From positions 2,693-66,692 of the forward strand of contig JAQYCQ010000036.1 in the NCBI GenBank assembly GCA_028724585.1: 64,000 nt of DNA, in the 5' to 3' direction. The position numbers and the translations under genes were made by a program. The notes under the pieces were generated by a model. That model was not told the origin of the DNA. It was given only the letters and a program-made list of their open reading frames with translations, and did not search any database. This document shows positions 309-41,121 of this stretch, piece by piece (position 1 is the first letter of the stretch; every line of letters begins with the position of its first letter). This DNA comes from Bacillota bacterium (GTDB taxonomy: Bacteria; Bacillota; Clostridia; Peptostreptococcales; Anaerovoracaceae).

Positions 309-1238
309 ATGGATAAAAGGTTTCTGTTCGGATCGTTCGTTTCAACTGTGTTTATAGGGATCATGGCTGCTGCTTCGCAGGCCGTTGGCAGCCTGGAGGT
401 CATATTCCCGGAAGCCGCGGCGCTGCTGCTGGGGTCTTTTATCATGCCGGCCATGCCGTGGAAGGTGAAGCATATAGTCATGACCGCGGAGATGACCTTC
501 TGCGCGGCGGCGGGACTGGTCATAAGCAGGTACATGGAGGCTCCCGTCTATTTTAAGATGCTGCTCGCGGCAGCGGTAGTATTCCTGCTGCTGCCTGCTG
601 CGGGAAATACCCTGACTCCGTCTGTATCAGCCTGCGTGCTGCCTGTGCTGGTGGGAGCCAGAGCCTGGATCTATGTGGTGTCCGTAGCTGTGACGGCGGC
701 TGTATGCGATCTGGGCAGTTACATATTGGAACGGCGCGGGAAGGACAATGCCGGTGAAAGATCTGTTTCCAGACAGATTATGATACCTCTCTGGAGCCGT
801 ATGTTCCCGGTCCTGGCCGTTATCCTGCTGCTGCCGGGGCTGAGCGGACAGCTGTATTTTACCGCGCCTCCGCTGATAGTGGCATTTACCGCCCTCTGCG
901 GTCCGGGCATGGCGGGCAGGGATTCGAAAAATCCGCCCGTAAAGACGATACTGCTCTTTTTCCTGACATCTTCTATCGGCTATCTGTGCAGGCTGCTCTG
1001 CGATAATACCGCGCTGCCGCTCGCTGTATGCGTCATGCTGGCGGCGCTGGCGGCCTGGACAGTGATCACAGCTTCAGGCAGGTATTTTCCACCTGCCGCT
1101 GCCCTGGCGGTGCTCCCTTTCATACTTCCGGCGACTGCTCTATGGCGCTATCCGCTGGAGGTCACCGCCGGCATAGCTATATATTACGCGGGCGCGCTGA
1201 TAGTAGACTTGTGGATGAGAAAAAACAATAAGAGATAG
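309..1238 (+). CDS. Polytopic integral membrane protein of unknown function, possibly HPP-family-like
   Basis: The ORF track gives 234..1238. I prefer ATG 309 (MDKRF...) because AGAGGA lies 7 nt upstream. The protein is very hydrophobic throughout, with a reiterated (F/T)P..A..L.. motif, for example FPEAAALLLG and FPPAAALAVL. The TTGACA at 234 is more likely a -35 box than a start codon. Confidence 0.6.
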   Translation: MDKRFLFGSFVSTVFIGIMAAASQAVGSLEVIFPEAAALLLGSFIMPAMPWKVKHIVMTAEMTFCAAAGLVISRYMEAPVYFKMLLAAAVVFLLLPAAGNTLTPSVSACVLPVLVGARAWIYVVSVAVTAAVCDLGSYILERRGKDNAGERSVSRQIMIPLWSRMFPVLAVILLLPGLSGQLYFTAPPLIVAFTALCGPGMAGRDSKNPPVKTILLFFLTSSIGYLCRLLCDNTALPLAVCVMLAALAAWTVITASGRYFPPAAALAVLPFILPATALWRYPLEVTAGIAIYYAGALIVDLWMRKNNKR

Positions 1239-1330
1239 TGGAACTGTTTTTCTCACTATGTGAAATCCATCCTTTTCTCATGATATAATCATAATAAGAA
1301 GGATCAGCAGAGCGCGGGAAGGGGAGAACA

Positions 1331-2107
1331 GTGAACGAACGCAGCAGAAAAGAGAAGAGAAAGACCAGCGTGTTCAGGGCTGTATTTATAGCCTTCATCG
1401 CTGTGGCTCTGCTCATAGCCGGCTTTCGCGTGATCCACACCTACAGCATGTACAGAGAAGCGAGGACCGAGTACGATTCGCTGCGCAATGAGGCTGTCAA
1501 AGTAAACGAGAAGGCGCTCTTCGACAGCTCGTATCCTCCCGTTAGTGTCGATTTCGACAGGCTCAAAGAAAAGAATCCTGATATCCGCGCCTGGGTCTGC
1601 ATAGCTCCGATTGAGACCAGCTATCCGGTGGTGAGAGGAAGAGATAATTTCTATTACAGGAACAGGACCTTTATGGAAAAGGAAAACAGCGCGGGCTGTA
1701 TCTATATAGACTACAGATCAGACAGCGGCTTCAACGATCCTAACACGGTGATATATGGAGCGGCTGTCAAAAACGGTTCCATGTTTGGTTCTCTGCATAA
1801 GATCTCAAAAGACCATACCTTTTCGACAGATCCATATATCTGGGTGATGGTGCCGGGAAAGTCTATGCGTTACAGGATATTCAGCATCCATGAAGATGTA
1901 AGGGGATCCGGGGTATACTCCTTCTTCAACGGAAAGGACAGCGGGTTCGTCCAGTATGCCCAGAAAATGGCTTCGGAATCGGATATACCGCTGGATATAC
2001 CGGAGTTCAGTAAGTCGAGCAGGGTGATCACTCTGTCGGCAGAGACTTCTGAGGGCAGAGGAAACTACGTGGTACAGGCGGTACTCGACAAAACGGTGGA
2101 ATCCTGA
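1331..2107 (+). CDS. Class B sortase homologue lacking the His/Cys/Arg catalytic triad (pseudo-sortase)
   Basis: GTG start with an AGGGGAG RBS and an N-terminal membrane anchor. It aligns clearly with SrtB through NPDIRAWV...SYPVV.G.DN.YY, AGCIYIDYR and NTVIYG..V.NGSMFGSL. However, the YGH histidine is Ala (codon 1760-1762), the TLSTC cysteine position reads TLSAE (Glu, 2042-2044), and the R.VV arginine reads NYVV. Confidence 0.75.
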   Translation: MNERSRKEKRKTSVFRAVFIAFIAVALLIAGFRVIHTYSMYREARTEYDSLRNEAVKVNEKALFDSSYPPVSVDFDRLKEKNPDIRAWVCIAPIETSYPVVRGRDNFYYRNRTFMEKENSAGCIYIDYRSDSGFNDPNTVIYGAAVKNGSMFGSLHKISKDHTFSTDPYIWVMVPGKSMRYRIFSIHEDVRGSGVYSFFNGKDSGFVQYAQKMASESDIPLDIPEFSKSSRVITLSAETSEGRGNYVVQAVLDKTVES

Positions 2108-2189: not shown

Positions 2190-2226
2190 AGCAGAGCGGG
2201 CGCAGAAGCGTCTGCTCATTTTTTGT
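2190..2226 (+). terminator. Possible terminator of the sortase-like gene
   Basis: The stem AGCAGA/TCTGCT encloses a 15-nt loop and is followed by cattttttg. This is a weak candidate. Confidence 0.35.
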
Positions 2227-2227
2227 A

Positions 2228-2256
2228 TTGACATATACCCCAACGGGGTATATATT
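2228..2256 (+). promoter_or_regulatory. Sigma-A type promoter of csoR-copA
   Basis: TTGACA (2228-2233), an exact 17-nt spacer, then TATATT (2251-2256). The spacer is the first CsoR-type palindrome. Confidence 0.7.
2233..2253. promoter_or_regulatory. CsoR-type operator 1
   Basis: ATATACCCC-aac-GGGGTATAT has perfect 9-bp arms and a G/C tract flanked by AT, as in known CsoR operators. It overlaps the promoter spacer. Confidence 0.7.
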
Positions 2257-2268
2257 GTCATCAGATCG

Positions 2269-2287
2269 GATACCCATGGAGGGTATC
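2269..2287. promoter_or_regulatory. CsoR-type operator 2
   Basis: GATACCC-atgga-GGGTATC has 7-bp arms and lies between the promoter and the csoR RBS. Confidence 0.6.
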
Positions 2288-2653: not shown

Positions 2654-5245
2654 TTGGACAAATATAATGTTACCGGCATGAGCTGCGCGGCATGCAGCGC
2701 CCATGTCGAAAAGGCGGTCAGCAAGGTGCCCGGAGTGGACAAGGTACAGGTAAACCTGCTTACAAATTCAATGACCGTAGAAGGATCGGCGCTGGTCGCA
2801 GAGATAGTGGCGGCTGTCGACAAGGCGGGCTACGGCGCTTCGCTGGCCGGCGGGAGCGGTCAGCAGCAGGCTGCGTCAGGCCTGGATGAGCTCAGGGATA
2901 CTGAGACTCCAGCCATGGTAAAGCGCCTGGCGGCATCGGTGGTCTTCCTGCTCATACTCATGTATTTCTCCATGGGCCACATGATGTGGGGATGGCCTCT
3001 GCCGGGATTTCTGGTGGACAACCATGTCGGTATGGGTATCGTGCAGATGCTCCTGGCCGGCATCGTTATGATCATCAACCAGAAGTTCTTCGTCAACGGC
3101 TTTAAGGGCGCCATCCACGGCGGGCCTAATATGGATACTCTGGTGGCTATGGGTTCAGGCGTATCGTTCGCGTGGAGCGTTTATGTGCTGCTCGATATGA
3201 CTGTCGCTGTGGTGAACGGCAGCGACACGAGGGTCATGAGCGATATGAACCAGCTCTATTTTGAGTCGGCCGCTATGATACTGGCGCTGATAACGATAGG
3301 AAAGACTCTGGAATCCTACTCTAAAGGGCGTACTACTGACGCCCTGAAGGGACTTATGAAGCTGGCACCTGAAACGGCGGTCCTGGTAAGGGACGGACAG
3401 GAAGTTGAGGTCAAGGTGGACCAGGTTCAGCCGGGTGACATCTTCGCCGTAAGGCCGGGAGCGAAGATCCCTGTCGACGGAGTCGTCGTAGAGGGAGCCA
3501 GCGCCGTAGACGAGTCGGCGCTGACAGGCGAAAGCATTCCTGTCGATAAAGAAACAGGAGACAGTGTTTCCGGAGGAACGGTCAACACTTCCGGCTACAT
3601 CAGATGCCGTGCCACCAGGGTCGGAAACGACACAGCCCTGTCGAAGATCATCAGCATGGTCGGGGACGCGGCAGCTTCCAAGGCTCCTATAGCGAGACTG
3701 GCTGACAGGGTGAGCGGTGTATTCGTGCCGGCGGTGCTCCTCATAGCGCTGGCGACATTCATCATCTGGATGCTGGTCGGCCAGAGTGTGGGATTTTCCC
3801 TGGCCAGGGCGATCTCCGTACTGGTCATCAGCTGCCCGTGCGCGCTGGGTCTCGCTACTCCTGTAGCTATCATGGTAGGAAACGGTATGGGAGCTAAGCA
3901 CGGGATCCTCTTTAAGACCGCTGAGACTCTGGAGTCAGCCGGGAAGGTTCAGATCATAGCTCTGGACAAGACGGGAACAATCACCGAAGGAAGGCCTTCA
4001 GTAACAGATATCATACCTGAGGAGGGTATGACTGAAGAGGATCTCATGACGACAGCGGCTTCCCTGGAAAGCAGGAGCGAGCACCCGCTGGCGGCAGCCA
4101 TCATGGACTGGGCGGAGGAGCATGACGTAAAGCTGGCGGAGATAGACGGATTCAAGATCCTCTCTGGCAGCGGACTTACTGCTAAGATTGGCGGGAGTAC
4201 AGTCACAGGAGGAAACCTGAAGTTCATAGAGAGCAAGGCTGAGGTATCAGACATGCTCAGGAGGAAGGCGGACGAGCTTGCCGACAAGGGCAGGACTCCT
4301 ATGTTCTTTGCCAGAGACGGCAGGGTCATAGGTATCGTTGCGGCGGCCGATACTATAAAGCCTGAGAGTGCCGAAGCTATACAGCAGCTCAGGAATATGG
4401 GCATCCATACGGTAATGCTCACAGGCGACAACGCGCGCACAGCCAGGGCGGTAGGCGCCGCGGCAGGCGTCGACGAGGTCGTGGCAGGCGTGCTCCCTGA
4501 CGGCAAGGAAAAAGTCATCAGGCAGCTCCAGCAGAGAGGCAAAGTTGCCATGGTCGGAGACGGCATAAACGATGCTCCGGCGCTCACAAGAGCCGATACA
4601 GGCATAGCCATAGGCGCCGGTACAGATGTCGCCATAGACGCGGCAGATGTAGTCCTTATGAACAGCAGACTGACAGACGTTCCGGCGGCGGTAAGGCTCA
4701 GCAGGGCCACCATCCGCAACATCAAGGAAAATCTGGGCTGGGCCTTCATCTACAACGTCATCTGCATACCGGTAGCCGCCGGCCTGTTCATTAACCTCAA
4801 CGGCTGGGCTATGAACCCTATGCTGGGCGCTCTCGCCATGAGCTTATCCAGCGTATGCGTAGTTTCCAACGCCCTCAGGCTAAACCTCTTTAAGCTGAAC
4901 GACAGCAGACGTGACAAGCCTGTTAAGAACGCGATAGAGCCGGGCGAATGCATCATAGAAGAGACATCAGCGGAGATATCCGATGATATAAACAAAAACG
5001 ACGATTTAACAGACAAGAAAACCACAACGGGGGAAAACGAAATGGAAAAAACTATCAAGATCAAAGGCATGATGTGCACACACTGCGAAGACCACGTAAG
5101 AAAGTCACTGGAATCACTTCCACAGGTAGACAGCGCCGCGCCAAGCCACGAAGCAGGCGAAGCTGTCCTCCAGCTCAACGCGGATGTTGCCGAGGCTGAT
5201 CTCAAGAAGGCTGTAGAGGAGGCTGGCTACGAATTCATCGGCTAG
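2654..5245 (+). CDS. copA: Copper-translocating P1B-type ATPase with N- and C-terminal HMA domains
   Basis: TTG start after AGAGGAG. Contains GMSCAACS (N-terminal HMA), TGES, the CPC motif ([11 protein letters not shown]), DKTGT and GDGINDAP, plus a second HMA ([11 protein letters not shown]) in the last ~70 aa. Confidence 0.93.
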
Positions 5246-5640
5246 AGCTTGTTAAAATTTCCTCTGACGTTGTCAGCTTCGCTGTTCTGCGGTGCTCACG
5301 TACTGCGTGTACGCTCCGCTCCTCGACAGCTCGCTTCCTAGTCAGAGAAAATTTTTCCTGCGCTCTGGTGCAATATAAAATAGTAGTATCTAAGAACGCA
5401 CAGCTTCACTGTTCTGCGGTGCTCACGTACTACGTGTACGCTCCGCTCCTCGGCAGCTTGCTTCCTCGCCAGAGAAAATTTTTCCTGCGCTCTGGTGCAA
5501 TATAAAATAGTATTATCTAAGAACGCTCAGCTTCACTGTTCTGCGGTGTTCACGTACTACGGGTACGCTCCGCTCCTCGACAGCTCGCTTCCTAGTCAGA
5601 GAAAATTTTTCCTGCGCTCTGACGAAATAGTATCTAGGCG
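5246..5640. repeat. Tandem repeat with a 127-bp unit: a partial lead-in, two full copies and one diverged copy
   Basis: Units start at 5274, 5401 and 5528 (cagcttc(a/g)ctgttctgcggtg...). Copies differ at only a few positions, and the third decays after ctgcgctctga. Each unit holds an imperfect hairpin (gcggtgctcacgta/tacgtgtacgctccgc) and a tgcaatataaaat element. Confidence 0.9.
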
Positions 5641-5944: not shown

Positions 5945-6763
5945 ATGGCAGCTATCGACCTAAACAAATTTTACAGCGGGCTGGACCGGATTTTTGCGAA
6001 ATTCGACCCTAAAGCCGTCCAGGAATACCTGGAGAAAAATCTCGCTGAGGCCGATGCCTCCGGCGACATAAAGGGCGCGACCGCTGTGCTCAACGAGCTG
6101 AGCGGGCTGTATCGCGTACAGGGCAGGTTCGCCGACGCTGTAGAAGCGTCGAACAGGTCACTTTACAACCTGAGGCAGATGGGCCAGAAGGATACTGAAA
6201 ATTACGCCACCGCCCTTATAAACCTTGCGGATATATATGTAGCCGCGGGCCGTTATAAGGAAGCTCTGGATATGTTCAGGTCGGCCGAGAATATACTGGT
6301 ATCGCTGGGCCTTCAGGAAGACTATCGGATGGCTGCTCTCTATAATAACATAAGCTCCGTCTACAGGGCGCTGGGAGACAGGTATATGGCGCTGGAGACC
6401 GCGAATAAAGCTATGGAGATCATAGAAAACCATGATTTCGGAGCGGACGTGGAGACGGATATCGCTACTACGTGCATAAACCTGGGTGAGGCTCAGATAT
6501 CCTGCGGAATATACGATGATGCGGAGAAGAACCTCAACAGGGCCTGCGAGATATACGCGAGACGTACAGGAAACAGGGACGGCCATTATCCGGCCGCTCT
6601 ATACGCGCTGGCGCGCCTTGCTGTAAGGCGGGGCGATTATGAGTCAGCCGAAAAAAACATATCAGAAGCGATGCGTCTTGTTGAAAACGTATCGGGCAGG
6701 GGAAAATATTATCAGACTCTGGCGCGCGCCCTCGAGGCGGTCAGAGAACGGAGGAATCGTTAA
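5945..6763 (+). CDS. Tetratricopeptide-repeat protein
   Basis: 272 aa with repeated A..Y..LA..Y...G.Y..A TPR-like units. Confidence 0.8.
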   Translation: MAAIDLNKFYSGLDRIFAKFDPKAVQEYLEKNLAEADASGDIKGATAVLNELSGLYRVQGRFADAVEASNRSLYNLRQMGQKDTENYATALINLADIYVAAGRYKEALDMFRSAENILVSLGLQEDYRMAALYNNISSVYRALGDRYMALETANKAMEIIENHDFGADVETDIATTCINLGEAQISCGIYDDAEKNLNRACEIYARRTGNRDGHYPAALYALARLAVRRGDYESAEKNISEAMRLVENVSGRGKYYQTLARALEAVRERRNR

Positions 6764-7695
6764 TGAAGGGCTTGACACTGGCCAGAGAATTTTATCAGAC
6801 CTATGGACGCGAAATGCTGGAGACGCGCTTCGGCTCCTATATCAAATACATGGCTATGGGCCTTGTAGGAGAGGGATCAGAGTGCTACGGATACGATGAC
6901 GAGTATTCGAGAGACCATGACTTCGGACCGGATTTCTGCATATGGATGCCTTACGATGTCTATAAGGAGATCGGGGCTGATGTGCTGCGCGCTTACGATG
7001 AGCTTCCGGGTCAGTATCTGGGATTCGAGAGACAGCCTCAGCAGCTTAAGGTCATGAGGCGCGGTGTTATCCCGATCGAGGAATTTTACTTTAAGTATAC
7101 GGCATGCCGTGATGTCCCGGATTCTAACGTGAAATGGCTCAGGATCCCGGAAAACTTCCTCTCCATCGCTACAAACGGAGAGATCTTCGAGGACAGGCTG
7201 GGCGAGATGACGCGCATAAGAAAAGCCCTGATCGATTTCTATCCGGAGGATGTGCTGAGGAAGAAGCTTGCGGCCAGAGCCGCTATCATGGCTCAGTCGG
7301 GGCAGTATAATTACGGCCGCTGTATGAAGCGGGGCGATGCTGCCGCGGCCTATCTTTCATGCCAGAAATTCGTGGACGCTTCTCTTTCCGCGGTCTTCCT
7401 TCTCAACAGGGCCTACATTCCTTATTACAAATGGTCTTTCCGCGCGGCGGAGGATCTGAAGGCAATGAAAATGACTGTCGAAAAGATCAAGGCACTAACG
7501 GCGATCCCAGACAGGAAAGAAAACACACAGCTGAAGCTCAATATTATCGAAGACATCTGCAAGGATGTCGGCAGGGAACTCAACTCACAGGGATTTTCAA
7601 GATCGCATGACGCATTTCTGCAGATGCATCTCGAAGATATAATGTCCGGCATAAAAGATCCTATTATAAGGAGTATGCATGTGATGGCCGAATAA
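6763..7695 (+). CDS. DUF4037-type protein with a putative minimal nucleotidyltransferase fold
   Basis: The start ATG overlaps the TPR gene stop (TAATG). The N-terminus GLVGEGSECYGYDDEYSRDHDFGPDFC matches my recollection of DUF4037 and fits the GS...D.D NTase pattern. Confidence 0.65.
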   Translation: MKGLTLAREFYQTYGREMLETRFGSYIKYMAMGLVGEGSECYGYDDEYSRDHDFGPDFCIWMPYDVYKEIGADVLRAYDELPGQYLGFERQPQQLKVMRRGVIPIEEFYFKYTACRDVPDSNVKWLRIPENFLSIATNGEIFEDRLGEMTRIRKALIDFYPEDVLRKKLAARAAIMAQSGQYNYGRCMKRGDAAAAYLSCQKFVDASLSAVFLLNRAYIPYYKWSFRAAEDLKAMKMTVEKIKALTAIPDRKENTQLKLNIIEDICKDVGRELNSQGFSRSHDAFLQMHLEDIMSGIKDPIIRSMHVMAE

Positions 7696-7722
7696 CGGCC
7701 GAAAACTTGGAGGTTGAAATTT

Positions 7723-8337
7723 ATGATCAGGTTTTTGAAGGACGAGACAGCGAAGGATAAGGTGATCAACAGTATCATCGCTGAAGAATGGGAAATGTTC
7801 GACAAAGTCCAGAACGTAAACGGCAGGGCTGTGTGTCAGGATGACGCAAAGACTTTCTACATCATGAGATACGGCCAGTTCTCGGTTCTCTCTGATGAAA
7901 CTCTCGAGAGCTATCTCTCAGATCTGAGAGTATCCAAGAACGCAGGCATCAACATGGTTGCGCTCAAGTACGCTTACATGATGAAGTTCACAGATTACGC
8001 ATACTATGACGATAATCTTAGAAAGAACGTTCCGCCTGTAACAAGCGAAAAGGAAGAACTGGTAACAGGAATCGTAGCAAAGCTGGAAGAATACCAGAAG
8101 GCTTTCGCTGCTAAGTACCCTAAGTTCGCTTCACGTCAGCGCACAACTGCTGAAGGAGTAAATGAAACTTCTATCAGCGCTTACGCTACAGGTGAGCTCG
8201 AGACTTACACACCGATGACTCTTAAGCTCGTGCAGAAGGATGTAGAAGCTGATCCGGCTATCCTCGAAAAGATGCAGAATGTTGTAGCTGCACTTTCAGG
8301 CTATACAAGCCTCAGCGAAGCAGAGGCAGCTCTCTAA
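7723..8337 (+). CDS. DUF4125-like protein
   Basis: The ORF track starts at TTG 7714. ATG 7723 sits 9 nt after GGAGG. The family call comes from remembered sequence character (..EW.MFD.V.N..GRA.CQDD..TF..MR) and has not been searched. Confidence 0.55.
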   Translation: MIRFLKDETAKDKVINSIIAEEWEMFDKVQNVNGRAVCQDDAKTFYIMRYGQFSVLSDETLESYLSDLRVSKNAGINMVALKYAYMMKFTDYAYYDDNLRKNVPPVTSEKEELVTGIVAKLEEYQKAFAAKYPKFASRQRTTAEGVNETSISAYATGELETYTPMTLKLVQKDVEADPAILEKMQNVVAALSGYTSLSEAEAAL

Positions 8338-8475: not shown

Positions 8476-10779
8476 TTATTTCGATTTCTTGGAACCGAAG
8501 AGGCTGGGCTTCTTGCTCTTATCTGAAGATTCAGCCTTTTCGGACTTGCTGCTGTCCTTATCATCCGAAGTGACTTCAGCGGTCTTGTAGATGTACTTGA
8601 CGCTTGCTGTCTCGCCGTCGAGGACTCCGCCGTAAGGCTTCTCTGAATTTGCGTAATCCTTTACAGCGTTGAGTCTGTCGAATGTACCGGCCAGGTCGCC
8701 GTTTACAGCTTCAGTGAGCTTTTTGATTCCCTTCTGGTCGAATTCGTACATTCCGTCTGAGAGAGTTTTAGCTCCTGATTCGAGAGCTGTCATGCCGTTG
8801 GCGAGCTTTACGGCTCCTGCGTTCAGAGTGTTTGCTCCGGCAGCCAGCTTGGATGTTCCTGCCTTGAGCTGAGCTGCTCCGGCATTGAGGTCGAGAGCTC
8901 CCTGAGTAAGCTGACCCATGTTGGAAGCGAGAGCTACGGCTCCCTTCTGCAGCTGGTCTACGCCGGAAGTGAGCTGGCCTGAGCTGGCAGCCAGCTTGCT
9001 TACTCCGCCTATGATAGCGCCCAGGTTATCGTCAGATGTGATAGCCGATGCTCCTGCCGCCATTCTTCCTGCGGTAGAAGCTATCTGTTCAGAGCCGTCC
9101 GCTATAGCGCCGGCACCGCTTGCCAGGTCTGAAGCTCCCTTGGAGAGCTGTGAAGCTCCGCCGGAGAGCTTTTCAGCGCCGGCCTCCAGTGATTTAGCTC
9201 CTGATACAGCGCCGCCGATACCGCCCGAAACGCCGCTAGCGTATTTAGCGGTTGCGCCTGCAGCGGCCTTTGCCTGTTCGAGGGCTCCCAGGGCCTGAGA
9301 GTATCCCGGTGTGGAAGGATCGAGCCCTTTGACAGCTGCTTCAGCCGCGGAGATGGCGCTGGATGTGCTGTTAGCGTATTTAGCTGTTTCGCTTGCTGCT
9401 GACTGGGCACTGGAAAGTCCCGAGGAGATCTTAGAAGCTCCTGCAGCAAGTGACTGCGCGTTGGAAGCCAGGGCCTGTCCGCCTGATGCCACTTCCTTAG
9501 CGCCCGGTACCAGCCTGCCGTTTATAGACGATGAGATCTTGTTGGCTCCCTGCTGGATGCCTTCGGCGCCCGCATAAAGGGAATTGTCGCTGCCCTTTAT
9601 GCTGTAGCTGATCTGCTGCAGTCCCTTGAGCATCTTCTGGGAATTGCCGGCTATATCAGCCGAATCGAGTCCGCTCTTGACTGTGGTAAGGCCGCTGGCG
9701 AGCTTATCAGCACCGTCCTGGAGCTGTGAGGCTCCGCTGGCCAGCTTTGATGTACCGCCTGCGAAAGCCGATACGCCGCTGTCGAGAGTGTAGGCTCCGT
9801 TTGCCAGAGTATTGATGCCGCCTGTAAGCTGGTCAGCTCCGTTGGCGGCTGTGACTGTTCCGTCAGCCAGTTCCTTGCTGCCGTTGACCAGCTTTGTGCT
9901 GGCAGCCTGCAGCTCGTCCATCTTCTTGCTGAGCTCATCAGCGCTGGAGATACTGTCGAGGTCAAGCTTCTTAAGCGCGTCGGATGTGCCGATGGTGAGG
10001 GTGCCCATGAGGTCGAAGTCTTCCACATCGCCTTCTATAGTCACGCTCTCAGGGATCCCGGCGCTTTCGATGCCAAGGCTCTGCGCCAGTCCCGGGAAAG
10101 CCATGCCGACAGCTATAGAGCGGGTGCCGTCGTTGATGATCTTTCCGTTTTTGATGGAGAGGTTCTTGACGCTGCTGTCTTCGAATACAGTTCCCGATAC
10201 CATGGCGTAAGGCTCGTATATGGTAGCGGCTTTGCCGTTTATAGTGGTCTTCTTCGCTGTATTGTTTTTATATGTGAAGCTCATCTTGAGATGGCCGGTA
10301 ACGTCTTTGATATCCTTACCGTCTATCTTGCTGCCGTCCAGCTCGTAGTCTATGCTGACATCTACAGGCAGCTTTTCTGTTGATCTGCCTTCGTAATATA
10401 TGTCGTTGCCGCCGGCCTTCCAGGTGATGGTGCCGTCGTTGTTTTCGCTGTAGCTTTCACTGCCTTTTACGTTCTCGACACCTGTCAGCGTAGTCTTATC
10501 GTTTAAAGTATCCGCGTCATCCTTGTTCTTGAGCCAGGAATCAACTATGATATCCTGCTTATCGCCGTTGGCGTCGGATACTACGTAAACGGTCGATTCC
10601 TTGCTGTCTGAGCTGCTGTCATCTGAAACGCCGATATTGTCGGCTGCTTCCGCGACCTCGTCGAGGTCGGAGCCGGACGAGCTGCTGTCAGACTTCGATG
10701 AGGCGGCGAATGCCGTAGTCCCCATGCTGGTGAGCACGAGGGCTGCTGACAGTACCACCGAGATCAGTTTCCTTTTCAT
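8476..10779 (-). CDS. Secreted protein with a long Leu-x-x-Gly heptad-repeat region, similar to YhgE/Pip-type repeats
   Basis: Signal peptide MKRKLISVVLSAALVLTSMGTTAFA, a ~270-aa N-terminal domain, then dozens of ..L..G... heptads (KLASGASQLQDGADKLASGL...). The tail is Lys/Ser-rich and there is no C-terminal TM segment. It starts 21 nt downstream of the MMPL gene. Confidence 0.75.
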   Translation of the reverse strand: MKRKLISVVLSAALVLTSMGTTAFAASSKSDSSSSGSDLDEVAEAADNIGVSDDSSSDSKESTVYVVSDANGDKQDIIVDSWLKNKDDADTLNDKTTLTGVENVKGSESYSENNDGTITWKAGGNDIYYEGRSTEKLPVDVSIDYELDGSKIDGKDIKDVTGHLKMSFTYKNNTAKKTTINGKAATIYEPYAMVSGTVFEDSSVKNLSIKNGKIINDGTRSIAVGMAFPGLAQSLGIESAGIPESVTIEGDVEDFDLMGTLTIGTSDALKKLDLDSISSADELSKKMDELQAASTKLVNGSKELADGTVTAANGADQLTGGINTLANGAYTLDSGVSAFAGGTSKLASGASQLQDGADKLASGLTTVKSGLDSADIAGNSQKMLKGLQQISYSIKGSDNSLYAGAEGIQQGANKISSSINGRLVPGAKEVASGGQALASNAQSLAAGASKISSGLSSAQSAASETAKYANSTSSAISAAEAAVKGLDPSTPGYSQALGALEQAKAAAGATAKYASGVSGGIGGAVSGAKSLEAGAEKLSGGASQLSKGASDLASGAGAIADGSEQIASTAGRMAAGASAITSDDNLGAIIGGVSKLAASSGQLTSGVDQLQKGAVALASNMGQLTQGALDLNAGAAQLKAGTSKLAAGANTLNAGAVKLANGMTALESGAKTLSDGMYEFDQKGIKKLTEAVNGDLAGTFDRLNAVKDYANSEKPYGGVLDGETASVKYIYKTAEVTSDDKDSSKSEKAESSDKSKKPSLFGSKKSK

Positions 10780-10800
10780 GATCTGTCACGTCCCTTTCCT

Positions 10801-12867
10801 TTAATTCGTTAGATGTCTCATGCCGCCGGTAGTCTTGCAGATGAACTTGTCGCAGAGCATGAGCAGGCTCGGCAGGAGTACAAGTACCATTACCATGCTG
10901 ATGAGGGCTCCGCGGGCCATGAGTACGCAGATGGAGCTGATCAGGTCTACGTCGGAGTAGAGGCCTACGCCGAACGTCGCCGCGAAGAATCCAAGAGCGC
11001 TGGTTATTATCGAGTTCATAGAAGTGCTGAGTGCTGTGAGCACTGATGACTGTTTATCATTTCCGGCCATTCTCTCAGTCTTGTATCGCGTAGTCATCAG
11101 TATCGCGTAGTCGACTGTAGCGCCGAGCTGGATCGTTCCTATTACGATGTTGGCTATGAACGGCAGCTGCGTTCCGGTCAGACCGGATAATCCAAGGTTT
11201 ATGTATATGGCCTCTTCTATTACAAACACAAGTATCACAGGCAGCGACGCGGACTTCAGGACCAGAAGTATGATTATGAATATCATCAGTATAGAGACTG
11301 CCGATACTGTGTTAAAGTCGTGGTTAGATATCTTTATCAGATCCCGGGTTGCCGGAGCTTCTCCGACCAGCATTCCTCCGGAATCGTATTTCTTTATTAT
11401 CTTTTCTATCTGTGTGCACTGCTTGTTTACCTGATCTGTAGCGACCTGGTACTCGGACGAAACGAGCAGCATCTTCCATTTTCCTGACTCGAAGGTATCC
11501 TTGAGTTTATCAGGGATCATAACGTCAGGTACCGAAGCGCCTATGACCGAATCGTAGCCGGCCGCCATCTGGACTCCTTTTACATCGCTGATCTCATCCG
11601 TCATGTTTCTGGTATCCTGTCTGGACAGGTCTGAGTGGACGAGGACCATGGATATGGAGTTCATGCCGTATTCGTCTTTAAGCTTCTGGTTGGCTTGTAC
11701 CGACGGAAGGTCTTTAGGCAGGCTGTTGTCAAGCTTGTAGTAAAGGTTGATGTTGTTGTAGAAGATCACGGCAGGTATCCAGAGGACCAGCATTATGATG
11801 GCCACGGACCTGTGGTGCTTCACTATGAAAGCTGACAGCCTGTGAGGCGGCACCTGTATCTTGAAGTGGGCTGTCTTCTGTATAGGCTTGTCGAACATGA
11901 GCAGGAGCGACGGAAGTATCGTTACGCAGCAGACAACTCCCAGTACTACTCCCTTTGCCATTACCAGTCCCAGGTTGAGTCCCAGAGTAAATGACATGAA
12001 GCAGAGGGCTATGAATCCGGCTATGGTCGTGAGCGACGATCCACTGACGGATACTATCGTATTAGCTATCGCGTGGGCCATTGCTTCTTTACGGTCGCTG
12101 TATATCTCACGCTGCTCCTCGAAGTTTCCATACAGGAATATGGAGTAGTCCATGGTGACCGCCAGCTGCAGCACTGCCGCCAGCGCCATGGTTATGAAGG
12201 ATATCTCGCCTATCAGCCCGTTGGTGCCCAAGTTATATATGATCGCTATTCCTATATCAGCAAGGAAGAGCAGAGGGACCAGAAAGGAATCCATGAAGAG
12301 CATCATGACTCCGCAGGATAAGAGCACGGCGATCAGAACGTAGATGCCCTCTTCTTTATTGGTAAGATCTCTGGTATCAGCTGTTATCGACGACATGCTG
12401 GACAGGAAAGCCTGTTTGCCGGCCAGCTTCTGAATCTCGTCGATCGCGTCAAGAGTTTCCTCAGCCGATGTCGAAGTATCCATGAACATGAACATGAGCT
12501 GTCCGTTGCCCTTATTGGAGTAGAAGGTATCCTGGACCTTCTGAGGGAGCGCGGAGACCGGAATGTCTGTATCCGCGAGGGTGAGAACGCTCTTTACATG
12601 GTCCACTTTTTCTACTTTATGTTTGAGTTTCAGTACATCCGCGTCGGACATATCGTCACAGACGAAGATGCCGTATGCTCCGGTTCCAAATTCGTCCATC
12701 AGTATCTGCTGGCCCTCCATAGAATCGATAGAATCAGGCAGATAGTAAAGGACGTCGTAGTTTATTTTCGTATTGATAAATCCGAAGATCGATGGTATGA
12801 GAAGAATGACCGCGAGGATCAGTATCGGTATCCGGAATCTGACTATCGTTTTGCCAAACCTGAGCAA
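10801..12867 (-). CDS. MMPL/RND-superfamily membrane transporter
   Basis: 688 aa with two blocks of ~6 TM helices, each preceded by a large extracytoplasmic loop. TTG start 6 nt after GGAGGTG. Confidence 0.85.
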   Translation of the reverse strand: MLRFGKTIVRFRIPILILAVILLIPSIFGFINTKINYDVLYYLPDSIDSMEGQQILMDEFGTGAYGIFVCDDMSDADVLKLKHKVEKVDHVKSVLTLADTDIPVSALPQKVQDTFYSNKGNGQLMFMFMDTSTSAEETLDAIDEIQKLAGKQAFLSSMSSITADTRDLTNKEEGIYVLIAVLLSCGVMMLFMDSFLVPLLFLADIGIAIIYNLGTNGLIGEISFITMALAAVLQLAVTMDYSIFLYGNFEEQREIYSDRKEAMAHAIANTIVSVSGSSLTTIAGFIALCFMSFTLGLNLGLVMAKGVVLGVVCCVTILPSLLLMFDKPIQKTAHFKIQVPPHRLSAFIVKHHRSVAIIMLVLWIPAVIFYNNINLYYKLDNSLPKDLPSVQANQKLKDEYGMNSISMVLVHSDLSRQDTRNMTDEISDVKGVQMAAGYDSVIGASVPDVMIPDKLKDTFESGKWKMLLVSSEYQVATDQVNKQCTQIEKIIKKYDSGGMLVGEAPATRDLIKISNHDFNTVSAVSILMIFIIILLVLKSASLPVILVFVIEEAIYINLGLSGLTGTQLPFIANIVIGTIQLGATVDYAILMTTRYKTERMAGNDKQSSVLTALSTSMNSIITSALGFFAATFGVGLYSDVDLISSICVLMARGALISMVMVLVLLPSLLMLCDKFICKTTGGMRHLTN

Positions 12868-12905: not shown

Positions 12906-12993
12906 TGACTATCAGTCATTATTTCAAAGCACAGTATAAAATAGTTATGACCAGCGGTCAATACTTTTAAAAGATAAAAATGACTTACGGTCA
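12906..12993. promoter_or_regulatory. Three TGAC-N5-GTCA palindromes, candidate TetR operators
   Basis: TGACtatcaGTCA (12906-12918), TGACcagcgGTCA (12948-12960) and TGACttacgGTCA (12981-12993), all in the divergent spacer between the MMPL and TetR genes. Confidence 0.6.
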
Positions 12994-13000
12994 CTTTGTG

Positions 13001-13029
13001 TTGACGAATCAATTTTTAGAGCATACAAT
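13001..13029 (+). promoter_or_regulatory. Promoter of the TetR gene
   Basis: TTGACG, a 17-nt spacer, then TACAAT. Confidence 0.55.
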
Positions 13030-13093
13030 AATTACAAATTGGCAGGGAACTGGCAGATGCCGGCAAGGCAGATATCCCTATGGAGATGAAATT

Positions 13094-13819
13094 ATGGGTA
13101 AGATCGAAGACAAAAAACTTCATAAGCGGGAGAAGCTCCTGGAGACGGCCCTTTCATTATTCCTGGAGAAGGGGCTGAACAAGACTTCGATATCCGACAT
13201 AACGACGAACGCCGGAGTCGCGAAGGGAACCTTTTACCTGTATTTCCGCGACAAGTACGACTTGAGGAAAAAGCTGATAGTCAGCAAGTCCGCGGAGCTG
13301 TTCGACCACGCTATAGAAAAGCTGGAGCGATCAGGCGCCTCATGTTTTGAGGACCAGATGATAATACTGATAGACGATATAATAAACCAGCTGGCGGCGG
13401 ATACAGCTGTGCTGAAATTCATAAACAAAAATCTCAGCATGGGCATGGTAATGTCGGCCATGAAAATGGACGCAGACGCGGAGCACAACGATTATATGAC
13501 CTATCTTTCGGACCTGATGCGCAAGACACCTGATGTAGAATGGAAGGCTCCGCATATAATGCTCTTTTCGGTAGTGGAGCTGGTCAGCAGCACCTGCTAC
13601 AGCGTCATACTGGGCAACAATCCCGTGGACCTGGCTCATTTCAAGCCATATCTATACAATGACGTGAGGAGCATAATAAAAAACCATGAAGTCCCTTTAA
13701 AAAAAAAACCTGAAAAGACAAAGCTTGGGCAGAAGCTGGGCTCACTGAAGGAACTGCCGCTCGACCGCCTGAAAAATCAGATAATACCGTCGGGAGGCGG
13801 TTCGCTCCGGCACGCGTAA
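13094..13819 (+). CDS. TetR/AcrR-family transcriptional regulator
   Basis: ATG 13094 follows GGAGATG; the ORF track start at 12980 lies inside an operator. HTH region: LNKTSISDITTNAGVAKGTFYLYFRDKYDL. Confidence 0.85.
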   Translation: MGKIEDKKLHKREKLLETALSLFLEKGLNKTSISDITTNAGVAKGTFYLYFRDKYDLRKKLIVSKSAELFDHAIEKLERSGASCFEDQMIILIDDIINQLAADTAVLKFINKNLSMGMVMSAMKMDADAEHNDYMTYLSDLMRKTPDVEWKAPHIMLFSVVELVSSTCYSVILGNNPVDLAHFKPYLYNDVRSIIKNHEVPLKKKPEKTKLGQKLGSLKELPLDRLKNQIIPSGGGSLRHA

Positions 13820-14153: not shown

Positions 14154-15545
14154 ATGAATATCCCAGAACCTGTCATGCGCTTCGGGATCACGCGCATGCT
14201 CAAATATGTAAAGAAAGATCCGGACAGGAACCTGATCAAGATCATGAACATGATAGATAAGATCATGGGCGACAAGTTCCAGCGCCAGAGAAAGGGCGTC
14301 AGGAAGGTCATCGAAAATCCGGCGGATCCGTATAATATTTTTATAAGGAAGGTGCTCACCGATACAGACTTCGAACAGCTGAAGACCTTTGTGGTAAATT
14401 TCTTCCTCAATGTAAACAACAAGGGCTGGCCTATCCAGGATAAGCTCAGGGAGCAGTACAACTGCAATATCCCGTGGGCGATCCTGCTGGACCCGACTTC
14501 AGCCTGCAATCTCCACTGCAAGGGCTGCTGGGCCGGCGAGTACGGCAACAGGCTCAACCTTTCCTTCGATGAGATAGACGATATCATAACACAGGGTAAG
14601 GAACTCGGCATTTATATGTACATTTATACAGGCGGCGAGCCGCTGGTAAGGAAGAACGACCTCATCAACATCTGCAGGAAGCACAGCGACTGTATCTTCC
14701 TGAACTTCACCAACGGAACGCTCATCGACGAAGAATTCGCGGACAGGATGCTGGAGGTAAAGAACTTCGTTCCGGCTATCTCGCTGGAGGGCTTCGAAGA
14801 AGCTACAGATTCAAGAAGAGGCACAGGCACATACCAGAAGGTGCTCAGAGCCATAGATATCCTCAAGAAGAAGCACCTCATCTACGGGATCTCGGCCTGC
14901 TATACGCGTGACAACATGGAGTCTATCACTTCAGAGGAATTCTACGACAAGCTGATAGAGCTCGGCGTGTACTTCATCTGGTACTTCCACTATATGCCGG
15001 TCGGAGCCGACGCTGTGCCTGACCTCATCCCGACACCTGAGCAGCGCGTCATGATGTTCAAGAGACTGAGGGATTATAGGTCGCGCAAGCCGCTCTTCGC
15101 CATGGACTTCCAGAACGACGGCGAATATGTGGGCGGATGCATTGCGGGAGGCAGAAGGTATCTGCACATCAACGCCAACGGCGATGTAGATCCTTGCGTA
15201 TTTATACATTATTCCAACGCTAATATCAGAAAGATGTCTCTGCTTGACTGCCTGAGGAGCCCGCTCTTCCAGGCTTATCACGACGGCCAGCCTTTCAACG
15301 ACAATATGCTGCGTCCGTGTCCTATGCTTGAGAACCCTGAGATACTGCCGGAGCTGGTTAAAAGGACCGGCGCTCATCCGACAGACTATACCGCTCAGGA
15401 AACTCCGGAACAGCTCTGTGAGAAGTGCAAGGCTTATTCCGAGAGCTGGGCGCCTGTAGCTGCGGATCTCTGGAAGCTGAGACAGGAAGAAAAGGCAGAG
15501 AGAGCCAGACAGGAAGAGGAAGAAGAGAAATCTGCTGTTAAATAG
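14154..15545 (+). CDS. Radical SAM protein of unknown specificity
   Basis: CNLHCKGCW (the CxxxCxxC cluster), GGEPL, and additional C-terminal Cys residues (CVFIHYS..., RPCPM). GGAGG RBS. Confidence 0.8.
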   Translation: MNIPEPVMRFGITRMLKYVKKDPDRNLIKIMNMIDKIMGDKFQRQRKGVRKVIENPADPYNIFIRKVLTDTDFEQLKTFVVNFFLNVNNKGWPIQDKLREQYNCNIPWAILLDPTSACNLHCKGCWAGEYGNRLNLSFDEIDDIITQGKELGIYMYIYTGGEPLVRKNDLINICRKHSDCIFLNFTNGTLIDEEFADRMLEVKNFVPAISLEGFEEATDSRRGTGTYQKVLRAIDILKKKHLIYGISACYTRDNMESITSEEFYDKLIELGVYFIWYFHYMPVGADAVPDLIPTPEQRVMMFKRLRDYRSRKPLFAMDFQNDGEYVGGCIAGGRRYLHINANGDVDPCVFIHYSNANIRKMSLLDCLRSPLFQAYHDGQPFNDNMLRPCPMLENPEILPELVKRTGAHPTDYTAQETPEQLCEKCKAYSESWAPVAADLWKLRQEEKAERARQEEEEEKSAVK

Positions 15546-15594
15546 GGCGGAAGCAGGCTCTTGAAGCAGACTTATAATGATAGAGATTTACGGC

Positions 15595-15623
15595 GCGGGT
15601 CCTGTGCGGATCCGCGTCTTTTT
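15595..15623 (+). terminator. Rho-independent terminator
   Basis: GCGGGTCC-tgtgc-GGATCCGC followed by gtcttttt. Confidence 0.7.
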
Positions 15624-15705
15624 AGATTATCCTATCGGCGTTACCACAGCTGATGGTATAATTAAAAAATACATCGGAATGAATTTTACAGACAGGAGAT
15701 AATAT

Positions 15706-16194
15706 ATGGCAGCAGAAACACTTATCGTTTACTATTCATGGAGCGGCAATTCCGAAAAGCTGGCTAAGAACCTTCACCAGGCGATCATAGGCAGCGACCT
15801 CTTCAAGATCGTCACCAAGCGCAAATATTCGGCCAGCTTTTTCCTGGCAGCCTTCCAGGCAGGCCGCGAGAAGAGGAAACACGCCAGACCTGAGATAGAG
15901 GGCGGCATAGCAGGCAAAAAAATGTCCAAATATGAAAGGATCATACTTATCTACCCTATATGGGACGGTTCCTGCCCTATGTGCGTGCTGACCTTCCTGG
16001 AGAGCATAAAGACAAAAGACCTGGACATTTTCCCGATCTCCACCAGCTCATCTGTGACCCTGGGCTCCAGCCTCAAGGCTATCAGAGAATCAGCGCCTGA
16101 AGCAAACATCGCGGAAGGCCTTGCGGTTCCGGGCAAGGCGGCGGATACCCAGAAGGCTGTCAATACGGTATTCCATTATCTCGGATTAAAATAG
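15706..16194 (+). CDS. Flavodoxin-family protein
   Basis: N-terminus TLIVYYSWSGNSEKLA, 162 aa, AGGAGA RBS. Confidence 0.7.
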   Translation: MAAETLIVYYSWSGNSEKLAKNLHQAIIGSDLFKIVTKRKYSASFFLAAFQAGREKRKHARPEIEGGIAGKKMSKYERIILIYPIWDGSCPMCVLTFLESIKTKDLDIFPISTSSSVTLGSSLKAIRESAPEANIAEGLAVPGKAADTQKAVNTVFHYLGLK

Positions 16195-39771: not shown

Positions 39772-40062
39772 AATCAGATTAATAAGGTAAATCCTGTGAT
39801 CAGAATTAGTAGCCTGCCTGTCAGGTGCTTCAGAGAGCCGGCGGCTGGTGTGAGCCGGTGTATCGGGGCAGTGTGAATGGATCTGTGAGGAGCTTCGGGG
39901 AAGGGCCTGAGCCTGTATACGAAGACGCGTTCCCGCGTTACAGGGAGGAGATATCGCGGTATCTTTAGGATAGCTGCTGTATCTTGCTGAGGGGAGAGCG
40001 ATCTCCCGAATAAGGGTGGCACCACGGTCTATCGTCCCTGTGACGATAGACCTTTTTGTTTT
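39772..40062 (+). promoter_or_regulatory. T-box riboswitch leader with a UGG (Trp) specifier
   Basis: GA/AGTA box (gatcagaattAGTAgcc), AG bulge cAGAGAg, distal loop gCTGGTGTGAg, and specifier loop gtGAA-TGG-A (TGG at 39878-39880). T-box sequence AATAAGGGTGGCACCACGG (40008-40026). Terminator GGTCTATCGTC-cctgt-GACGATAGACC followed by Ts. Confidence 0.85.
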
Positions 40063-40080: not shown

Positions 40081-41121
40081 ATGAAAATCAGAAAAGTCAT
40101 GGCGGTATCACTGGTCGCTGTAATGGCAATGTTCACACTCGCTGGCTGCGGAAGCACGAGCTCCGGTTCAGCTTCTTCGGACACGTCTTCCGATTCAGGC
40201 AAGACATATACTGTAGGCATCACTCAGTTCGCTGAGCACGGTTCCCTCGACAACTGCAGGAAGGGTTTCCTCAAGGGCCTCGCTGACGAAGGCATCAAAG
40301 AAGGAGACAACCTCAAGGTAGATTACCAGAACGCTCAGGCAGATACAGGCACTGCCAGCCAGATAGCCGACAGCTTAGTATCGAGCAAGGTAGACATGAT
40401 CTGCGGTATAGCTACACCGACAGCACAGAGCGCCTTCAACGCAGCTCAGAGCACTGACATACCAGTTATCTACACAGCGGTTTCAGATCCTGTAGCCGCA
40501 GGCTTCGCTGACGAAGACGGCAACAGCGTTGGAAACATCACCGGCTCTTCCGATAAGCTCCCTGTTAAGGAACAGCTGGAAATGATCAGGAAGATGATGC
40601 CGGACGCCAAGAAGATCGGTATCCTCTATACTACGAGCGAGACTAACTCAGTTTCCACTATCAAGGAATACAAGAAGCTGGCTCCGGACTACGGATTCGA
40701 GATCGTAGAAAAAGGAATCAACACCATCGCCGATGTAGACATGGCTGCTTCAGACCTGGTAACTAAGGTAGACTGCATCAGCAACCTCACAGACAATACA
40801 GTAGTAGAGTCTCTGCAGACTGTTCTCGACAAGGCTAACGCCGCAGGTATCCCTGTATTCGGATCAGAGATAGAGCAGGTAAGGAACGGCTGCGTCGCTT
40901 CTATGGGTATAGACTACACAGCACTCGGCGAAGAGACAGGCAAGATGGCAGCCAAGATCCTCAAGGGCGAAGCGACTGCCGAAGACACTAAATACATCAC
41001 TGCGTCAAAAGCGCTCCTTTATGTAAACACTGAGGCAGCCGAGAAAGTAAACCTGACTCTCGACCAGGATTACATCAAGGACGCAGCTGAGACCTTCGAC
41101 AAGATCGAAGCCAGCAAATAG
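40081..41121 (+). CDS. ABC transporter substrate-binding lipoprotein (ABC_sub_bind / PF04392-like)
   Basis: Lipobox FTLAGC-G and a Ser-rich linker. The YTVGITQFAEH..LD start is typical of this family. Confidence 0.8.
   Translation: MKIRKVMAVSLVAVMAMFTLAGCGSTSSGSASSDTSSDSGKTYTVGITQFAEHGSLDNCRKGFLKGLADEGIKEGDNLKVDYQNAQADTGTASQIADSLVSSKVDMICGIATPTAQSAFNAAQSTDIPVIYTAVSDPVAAGFADEDGNSVGNITGSSDKLPVKEQLEMIRKMMPDAKKIGILYTTSETNSVSTIKEYKKLAPDYGFEIVEKGINTIADVDMAASDLVTKVDCISNLTDNTVVESLQTVLDKANAAGIPVFGSEIEQVRNGCVASMGIDYTALGEETGKMAAKILKGEATAEDTKYITASKALLYVNTEAAEKVNLTLDQDYIKDAAETFDKIEASK

Follow-up and report, generated by a model that had tools for sequence, protein, structure and literature searches.

A conserved class B sortase homologue of gut Anaerovoracaceae-like bacteria that appears to be catalytically dead

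Sortases are treated as uniformly catalytic cysteine transpeptidases, and they serve as drug targets and protein-engineering tools. What, then, is to be made of a class B sortase gene in which every catalytic residue has been replaced? Such a gene lies in DNA of a Bacillota bacterium of the Anaerovoracaceae (GenBank assembly GCA_028724585.1, contig JAQYCQ010000036.1), of which we analyzed the 64,000 nucleotides from position 2,693 to position 66,692, hereafter the window. The original prediction, made from the letters alone, described the open reading frame (ORF) at 1331..2107 (+) of the window as a homologue of sortase B (SrtB) that has lost the catalytic His, Cys and Arg, and took it for a retained, non-catalytic sortase-fold protein and not for a decaying pseudogene. 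Both the observation and the interpretation are upheld here. The alignments, the predicted structure and the comparison of orthologues support the view that the protein, which we call pseudo-SrtB, is a conserved, catalytically dead class B sortase.

Catalytic positions and fold of pseudo-SrtB

The residues at the catalytic positions were placed by pairwise HMMER alignments, a 15-sequence MAFFT alignment and a 187-sequence alignment, which agreed where they overlapped. The pairwise alignments with the SrtBs of B. anthracis and C. perfringens reach the His site and end one residue before the Cys position, at TLSA/TLST. In both of them, Ala144 (codon GCG, 1760..1762, +) is aligned with the His of the YGH motif, which reads YGA in pseudo-SrtB. 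In the 15- and 187-sequence alignments, Ala, Glu and Asn were found at all three catalytic positions. The position of the Cys nucleophile is occupied by Glu238 (GAG, 2042-2044), the last residue of the Ser236-Ala237-Glu238 stretch (2036..2044, +) that replaces the end of TLSTC with that of TLSAE. Asn245 (AAC, 2063..2065, +) stands at the position of the catalytic Arg, where RYVVQ has become NYVVQ. In the AlphaFold model, strand β7 closes with Glu238 and strand β8 opens with Asn245, the places where sortases carry Cys and Arg. The profile and structural alignments thus put Ala, Glu and Asn at these positions in place of His, Cys and Arg, and the three replacements first read by eye (His to Ala at codon 1760, Cys to Glu at codon 2042, and the downstream Arg to Asn) are confirmed.

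A fourth change had escaped the original prediction: the Thr preceding the Cys is replaced by Ala237. This Thr has been proposed to stabilise the acyl-enzyme intermediate of SrtB (PMC11987632). Among 184 other SrtB homologues, the His is present in 183, the Thr in 179, the Cys in 181 and the Arg in 178. The Ser at position 236, which 168 of the 184 possess, is kept in pseudo-SrtB. No unusual charge was detected in the old active-site region; the proteins that share these replacements lie within the spread of other SrtBs. Because the nucleophile is lost, we infer that pseudo-SrtB is inactive as a transpeptidase, and there is little doubt that it is not a sortase enzyme.

The homology to SrtB is clear in spite of scores under the curated limits. 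Pseudo-SrtB matched the NCBIfam family TIGR03064 (sortase_srtB) with an E-value of 7.5e-32 at 110.5 bits, below the curated cut-off of 153.75, and the Pfam family Sortase (PF04203) at 21.8 bits, below the gathering score of 26.6. Two orthologues (P0001 and P0002) have no precomputed Pfam match. Solved SrtB chains of B. anthracis, C. perfringens, L. monocytogenes, C. difficile and S. aureus were matched with E-values from 2.5e-20 to 2e-12. The AlphaFold model, built on the 15-sequence alignment, is confident (predicted local distance difference test, pLDDT, 86.7; predicted template modelling score, pTM, 0.82). It comprises an eight-stranded β-barrel, an N-terminal helix of the SrtB type and a long β6-β7 loop that carries a helix at residues 204-215. 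When the model was compared with the PDB by Foldseek, the top 19 matches were all class B sortases, with E-values down to 3.7e-18 and target TM scores of 0.62-0.89, mostly at least 0.77. Because the family and PDB matches, the confident model and the Foldseek result all point to class B sortases, pseudo-SrtB is assigned, on sequence and model, to the SrtB fold family by descent, and the SrtB architecture first recognised from its motifs is borne out.

The N-terminal region (1331..1432, +) encodes a K/R-rich, cytoplasmic N-terminus at residues 1-13, MNERSRKEKRKTS, followed by a single transmembrane anchor at residues ~14-34, VFRAVFIAFIAVALLIAGF, of which ~20 residues form the hydrophobic segment. 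In the model, one long helix is predicted over residues 3-55. The same pattern of charge followed by hydrophobicity is also seen in the orthologues, although only 21% of the residues are invariant there. The membrane anchor noticed earlier is therefore retained across the orthologues, and the predicted topology is type II, typical of sortases, with the sortase-fold domain on the outer side.

On two points that define the class B sortases (MEROPS C60B), the answer differs from that of the fold. Pseudo-SrtB falls below the curated score thresholds, and it lacks the catalytic triad and the Thr. Because the catalytic residues and the curated thresholds are what define the family, pseudo-SrtB is not to be filed as a sortase enzyme. 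Public annotation pipelines label the orthologues 'class B sortase'. This label overstates their function, and the sortase counts of genome surveys may include dead copies.

Conservation and constraint within a small clade

The substitutions are common to only one small clade, which consists of three species-level lineages of Anaerovoracaceae-like metagenome-assembled genomes (MAGs) from pig and ruminant gut. A word-indexed search of 5.8 billion proteins returned two relatives with the same changes, P0001 (64% identity, an 'Eubacteriales' MAG) and P0002 (54% identity, an Anaerovoracaceae MAG). The aligned matches at 37% identity or less carry normal YGH, TLSTC and RYVVQ motifs, except for two isolated degenerate proteins, P0023 and P0035. 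An exhaustive HMMER search of 1.84 billion representatives at 50% identity gave one cluster at 496 bits, and the next match scored 205 bits; because of this gap, the clade is small and sharply set apart from the remaining family. In a scan of the GTDB species representatives, only the P0002 genome was found. Thus, the exhaustive profile, word-indexed and GTDB searches detected no clade member beyond the three lineages. For the protein of the window itself, 51 contigs are on record, and near-identical copies of the locus occur in many metagenome runs from pig gut.

Is the gene maintained, or is it a pseudogene that has not yet been disrupted? The loss of all catalytic residues, the scores under the family cut-offs, the frameshifts in some metagenome variants, the non-ATG starts and the narrow distribution would suit a non-functional relic. 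The orthologues, however, are only 54-64% identical and still have full-length ORFs of 253-258 amino acids, with the ribosome-binding site (RBS) and an extended -10 element kept. Between species, the ratio of non-synonymous (dN) to synonymous (dS) substitution rates, omega, was 0.044-0.162 by the NG86 method, with dS saturated (1.5-6). One pair of loci, L002 and L026, is unsaturated: dN was 0.0137 and dS 0.208, which gives an omega of 0.066. There are 28 synonymous and 8 non-synonymous codon changes in this pair; under neutrality, so small a number of non-synonymous changes has a binomial probability of 1.5e-12. In the same two genomes, omega of the copper P-type ATPase gene copA was 0.075. 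The three copies of the L001 type differ by only 3 nucleotides and are uninformative for dN/dS. No conserved ORF on the opposite strand overlaps the gene and could constrain its sequence. The conservation is also uneven, with 21% to 70% of residues invariant by region, unlike uniform decay, and the fold prediction is confident. These results make a relic very improbable. The gene is very likely functional and under selection, and the claim of a retained protein, not a decaying pseudogene, withstood the comparison of orthologues: two further lineages carry the same Glu and Asn, with intact synteny and purifying selection. Clear homology to an enzyme family with loss of the essential residues, together with intact orthologues under purifying selection, is the pattern of a pseudoenzyme.

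The replaced positions do not behave alike. In all four distinct sequences of the clade, Ala237 (GCx), Glu238 (GAG) and Asn245 (AAC or AAT) are fixed, while the old His position, 144, is Ala, Glu, Cys or Ser. Of the eight amino-acid differences between L002 and L026, two (H142Y and C144S) affect the old His motif. This fits a position 144 freed from constraint, beside neighbouring sites under newly gained constraint. Strict fixation of Glu and Asn while the old His position drifts is also the pattern expected for a specific new role, and the groove around Glu238 and Asn245 is the most constrained part of the protein. The two residues might therefore form a new active site, for example that of a hydrolase that relies on Glu to cleave a peptide or cell-wall substrate. 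Against such an enzyme, no conserved partner acid or base and no metal-ligand set is evident, and the natural partner position, 144, is the variable one. No precedent for this chemistry on the sortase fold was found in the literature searched, and fixed polar residues could equally serve binding or stability. We consider a new enzyme decidedly unlikely.

The clade also has one block that is conserved above all others. Across the three species, 21% of residues are invariant in the anchor and stalk and 38-63% in most of the barrel, whereas 70% are invariant at residues 185-231 (1883..2023, +). This block runs from the last part of β6 through the long, helix-bearing β6-β7 loop and includes Tyr196. 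The pairwise identity of this block is 79% within the clade against 20% among twelve active SrtBs in the same columns, which are the least conserved region of the active enzymes. In real SrtBs, substrate specificity is determined by the β6-β7 loop (PMC11987632). Three residues hold the P4 Asn of the sorting signal, namely a Tyr of this loop, a Ser of β7 and the catalytic Arg, and losing any of them abolishes binding (PMC11987632). In B. anthracis SrtB the Tyr and the Ser are Y191 and S231, which bind the P4 Asn; mutation of either abolished binding (PMC11987632). Their counterparts, Tyr196 (with a register uncertainty of one residue) and Ser236, are retained in pseudo-SrtB. Since both are retained but the Arg has become Asn, the groove walls are preserved and clade-specific, and the canonical binding mode is probably altered.

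From these observations the following explanation can be proposed. The ancestor would have been an active SrtB, and the gene would since have been kept as a functional one in a small clade of gut Anaerovoracaceae-like bacteria. Its product is a type II membrane-anchored protein with an extracytoplasmic class B sortase fold, which would be incapable of sortase chemistry, and selection acts most strongly on the walls of the old sorting-signal groove (the β6 end, the β6-β7 loop and helix, β7 and β8). Because selection is strongest on these walls and Tyr196 and Ser236 survive, the protein would most likely be a module that binds without enzymatic activity outside the membrane, at its surface, with a specific ligand held in the old groove. 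Candidate ligands are a peptide segment of a secreted or surface protein and a peptidoglycan precursor. Instead of cleaving and transferring its ligand, pseudo-SrtB would act as a receptor, holdase or scaffold. Taken together, a non-catalytic pseudo-sortase encoded by a functional, selected gene and binding through its groove outside the cytoplasm seems, on balance, probable. The specific groove-binding mechanism is proposed more tentatively. The analysis itself demonstrates the fold, the anchor, the four lost catalytic residues, the confinement to one clade, the purifying selection and the distribution of constraint. That the groove still binds something, what it binds and what the physiological role is are the inferred parts of this explanation.

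Several points weigh against the explanation. The catalytic Arg of SrtB also contributes to substrate binding (PMC11987632). Asn245 may thus have destroyed the canonical binding mode, and a new protein-protein interface could instead account for the conserved loop. The starts are GTG or TTG in all three lineages, which suggests low expression. In metatranscriptome libraries of bovine and pig gut, parts of the gene were matched by only a few contigs, all short and of low depth, and DNA carry-over could explain them. Variants of the P0001 lineage (P0218, P0221 and P0223) are frameshifted, truncated or split on single metagenome contigs, by assembly error or by real loss. The clade is tiny, so the evidence for conservation rests on few independent lineages. 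Neither a second sortase nor a protein with a sorting signal was found in the 64-kb window and ~90 kb of orthologous loci.

This last search was performed on six-frame translations of the window and of five loci (L001, L002, L004, L008 and L009), with a hidden Markov model (HMM) made from the sortase alignment and a regular expression for C-terminal sorting signals. In the window and the five loci, the HMM recovered only the pseudo-sortase itself, and the surface proteins nearby carry SLH or Cu_amine_oxidN1 domains, not sorting signals. The result bears on whether pseudo-SrtB regulates, or pairs with, an active sortase encoded at another place in the genome, either sequestering substrates or lipid II or tuning activity as a heterodimer. 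Pseudoenzymes in general behave in this way toward active paralogues. The fold, the membrane anchor and the groove walls that a partner would need are retained, and a promoter-like element of its own makes independent regulation possible. The lack of an active sortase and of sorting-signal proteins in the window and the five loci and the other anchoring domains of the neighbouring surface proteins speak against a partner, and the loss of the Arg should weaken the binding of canonical signals (PMC11987632). Because a real SrtB needs this Arg to bind its substrate (PMC11987632), the loss also argues against a simple decoy for canonical sorting signals. As far as the window and the five loci show, a role as the partner of a sortase is improbable, and a binding module with a ligand of its own in the old groove is preferred.

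Genomic surroundings

The ORF of pseudo-SrtB is intact, with a GTG start and 258 amino acids. An RBS, GGAAGGGGAG (1317..1326, +), can be read directly off the sequence 4 nt 5' of the start; the intact frame and good RBS described at the outset are both present. In the orthologues, the RBS sequences are GGAGGGAG and AAAGGAG, ahead of TTG starts. Upstream, a promoter-like site with an extended -10 (GTGAAA, 18 nt spacer, TG-n-TATAAT) lies at 1260..1289 (+). It scored 10/12 plus the TG extension in a consensus scan and is putative, being a consensus match only; a TGnTAnAAT extended -10 is found at the same place in both orthologous loci. Downstream, a hairpin of 10 pairs (7 G-C) followed by a T-run, resembling an intrinsic terminator, is located at 2194..2217 (+), immediately before the csoR-copA promoter, and is predicted to close the transcription unit of the pseudo-sortase.

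The gene order is the same in all clade genomes: an HPP-like gene, pseudo-SrtB, csoR, copA, a TPR gene, DUF4037, DUF4125, a gene of ~760 codons and an MMPL gene. In the window, csoR is at 2322-2639 and copA, the gene of the copper P-type ATPase, at 2654-5245 (+). They are preceded by a strong promoter-like site (TTGACA, 17 nt spacer, TATATT; 2228..2256, +) and by two CsoR-type operators (2235-2251 and 2270-2286); this region (2228..2286) belongs to a transcription unit separate from that of pseudo-SrtB. The control region is a textbook one, with a perfect palindromic operator, ATACCCCAACGGGGTAT, over the promoter and a second operator 35 bp downstream. In all orthologues, HMA metal-binding domains are found at the N-terminal as well as the C-terminal end of the ATPase.

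On the other side, the upstream neighbour (309..1238, +) encodes a polytopic membrane protein of 309 amino acids with a tandem-duplicated unit that distantly resembles HPP (PF04982), in agreement with its first description as a polytopic membrane protein. Such a gene precedes the pseudo-sortase in every clade genome. The window protein has no Pfam match, while two homologues show a faint PF04982 match and one carries the name 'HPP family protein'. The motifs of the neighbour are IFPE..A...G / P..SA..LP and APPL / FPPA.A...LP. The AlphaFold model is confident (pLDDT 88.8), and a comparison of this model with the PDB gave no significant match (best E 0.047, TM 0.29). The HPP-like gene is also next to csoR-copA in two more distant lineages without a pseudo-sortase, namely a Firmicutes MAG, where no gene lies between them, and Ruminococcus flavefaciens. 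Thus, the pseudo-sortase appears to have been inserted between two possibly linked genes. The HPP-like homologues of two further lineages are not beside cop genes. As an observation in its own right, the family of ~310 amino acids (window 309-1238, +; L008 2521-3507; L009 5001-5954) is mostly without a Pfam match. At least three separate Firmicutes lineages have it beside csoR-copA, and it may belong to the copper-handling machinery as an uncharacterised component.

These surroundings raise another role for pseudo-SrtB, that of a copper-homeostasis accessory, in which the ectodomain pocket with Glu for Cys and Asn for Arg binds metal or the protein works with the HPP-like protein and csoR-copA. 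The gene stands between the two in every clade genome, and the adjacency of the HPP-like gene and csoR-copA in the Firmicutes MAG and R. flavefaciens suggests a functional link of that pair. Just upstream in the P0001 and P0002 lineages there are MerR genes and DUF364/DUF4213 genes of 'putative heavy-metal chelation'. The regulatory evidence points the other way. When CsoR operators were searched as a pattern with up to 3 mismatches, good sites were found only in the csoR-copA promoter and none upstream of 1331 or 309, and the terminator separates the two units. The protein itself has no CxxC, Met-rich or His-rich motif in the alignments inspected; Cys123, the only Cys invariant in the clade, is common to 36 of the 184 active SrtBs; and the charge is unremarkable among SrtBs. 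The adjacency counts as one evolutionary event, as the clade genomes are syntenic relatives, and other HPP-like homologues lie away from cop genes. A copper accessory is therefore unlikely. The same low weight is given to the combined case in which the Glu238/Asn245 pocket is a newly evolved site, cation- or copper-binding or catalytic, acting with the HPP-like protein and CsoR-CopA; if true, it would be the first case of a sortase fold put to use in metal homeostasis or in non-thiol chemistry. Binding of a peptide or cell-wall ligand in the old groove remains the preferred explanation for pseudo-SrtB.

At the left end of the window, the ORF fragment at 3-143 is the C-terminal end of a protein with a Cu_amine_oxidN1 ('stalk') domain (Pfam E 4.3e-07), as had been read from the sequence. 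The corresponding gene upstream of the block is intact in one strain (L004 8229-8816; 195 amino acids) and split into two ORFs in two others (L005 493-1080; L007 529-1080). SrtB genes of Bacilli are classically found in haem-uptake (Isd) loci. In the two sister lineages (L001 375-6796; L002 1-6851), but not in the window's species, several SLH-anchored surface proteins with Shr-like haem-interacting domains are encoded upstream of the block; the region also holds the MerR and DUF364/DUF4213 genes and, in one strain (L027), a Peripla_BP_2 binding protein. The Shr-like/SLH genes may be a trace of the ancestral context, or a coincidence.

Several features downstream of copA were also observed. 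In the ~700-bp gap between copA and the TPR gene, a 127-bp tandem repeat is present in 2.7 copies with a 93% match (5274-5621). A contig joint in a public run 'goes back 127', from 5400 to 5274, which implies that the copy number of the repeat varies from strain to strain. The TPR, DUF4037 and DUF4125 trio directly 3' of copA (5945-8337, +) is kept in all three species. It is followed at 8476-12867 (-) by a gene for a 767-amino-acid protein without a Pfam match and then one for an MMPL-family transporter, which diverges from a TetR-family regulator gene (12980-13819, +); the pair is conserved in all three species. At 14154-16194 (+) there are genes for a radical SAM/SPASM-domain enzyme and a flavodoxin, which could be a pair of the peptide-maturation or anaerobic sulfatase-maturase type. 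A T-box leader (Rfam RF00230, 114.6 bits) was detected at 39787-40042 (+), upstream of a gene at 40081-41121. Pfam scans showed the remainder of the window to be ordinary chromosome, with tig-clpP-clpX-lon and genes for an aminoacyl-tRNA synthetase and for ABC transporters, among others.

Comparison with known systems

In the literature searched, with subscription journals outside its coverage, no published account was found of a conserved sortase without catalytic residues, whether called pseudo-, inactive or degenerate. The clade thus appears to be an undescribed and clean case of a conserved pseudo-sortase B, confined to a very small group of uncultured gut bacteria. It indicates that the SrtB fold can be kept by selection without its chemistry, which would imply that the sorting-signal groove serves for binding or as a scaffold. 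If a ligand were identified, pseudo-SrtB would be a natural 'reader' domain of the sortase type, and it might expose an unrecognised step of surface-protein or cell-wall handling in gut Clostridia.

Solved class B sortases: Pseudo-SrtB has the same fold as the enzymes of B. anthracis (1RZ2, 2OQW), C. perfringens (5B23), C. difficile (4UX7, 5GYJ) and S. aureus (1NG5, 4LFD). The long N-terminal helix, the long β6-β7 loop with its helix and the N-terminal membrane anchor are common to all of them, as are the motifs NPDI.AW, SYPVV, DN..Y, AG.I.ID.R, DPNTVIYG, GSMFGSL, TLS and YVVQA, and the β7-β8 loop of pseudo-SrtB has the 6 residues typical of SrtBs. In contrast to these enzymes, pseudo-SrtB has Ala (variable), Ala, Glu and Asn for His, Thr, Cys and Arg. 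Its gene is not in an Isd-type or pilus locus, and no cognate sorting-signal substrate gene was found near it in the window and the five loci.

Closest active relative: The P0003-type SrtB, with 37% identity, matches pseudo-SrtB in length and architecture. A similarity can still be recognised in the β6-β7 loop and helix (YTLFQGTSDEFIEYLQKMKTNSQ against YSFFNGKDSGFVQYAQKMASESD). Unlike pseudo-SrtB, it keeps YGH, TLSTC and RYVVQ. The gene of P0003 is on short contigs beside a serine recombinase gene, ParA and small cargo genes, a mobile-element-like setting and not a conserved chromosomal block. Since P0003 adjoins the recombinase and ParA genes, a mobile-element origin is plausible.

Isolated degenerate homologues: Other SrtB homologues have lost part of the triad as well, with different substitutions. 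In P0023, an unrelated homologue of 320 amino acids on a 2.7-kb contig, His has become Arg and Cys has become Gly, whereas the Arg is retained; it represents an independent case of degeneration. Proteins of this kind are singletons on short contigs, and unlike pseudo-SrtB they come without a series of orthologues that shows conservation.

Envelope pseudoenzymes: EnvC and NlpD, the degenerate LytM-domain factors of Gram-negative bacteria, are envelope pseudoenzymes that activate amidases. Their fold and family are unrelated to those of pseudo-SrtB. Like them, pseudo-SrtB would be an extracytoplasmic, conserved homologue of a cell-wall enzyme without catalytic residues. EnvC and NlpD reuse the old substrate groove non-catalytically, and pseudo-SrtB may, by analogy and not by homology, do the same with the groove of an ancestral sortase.

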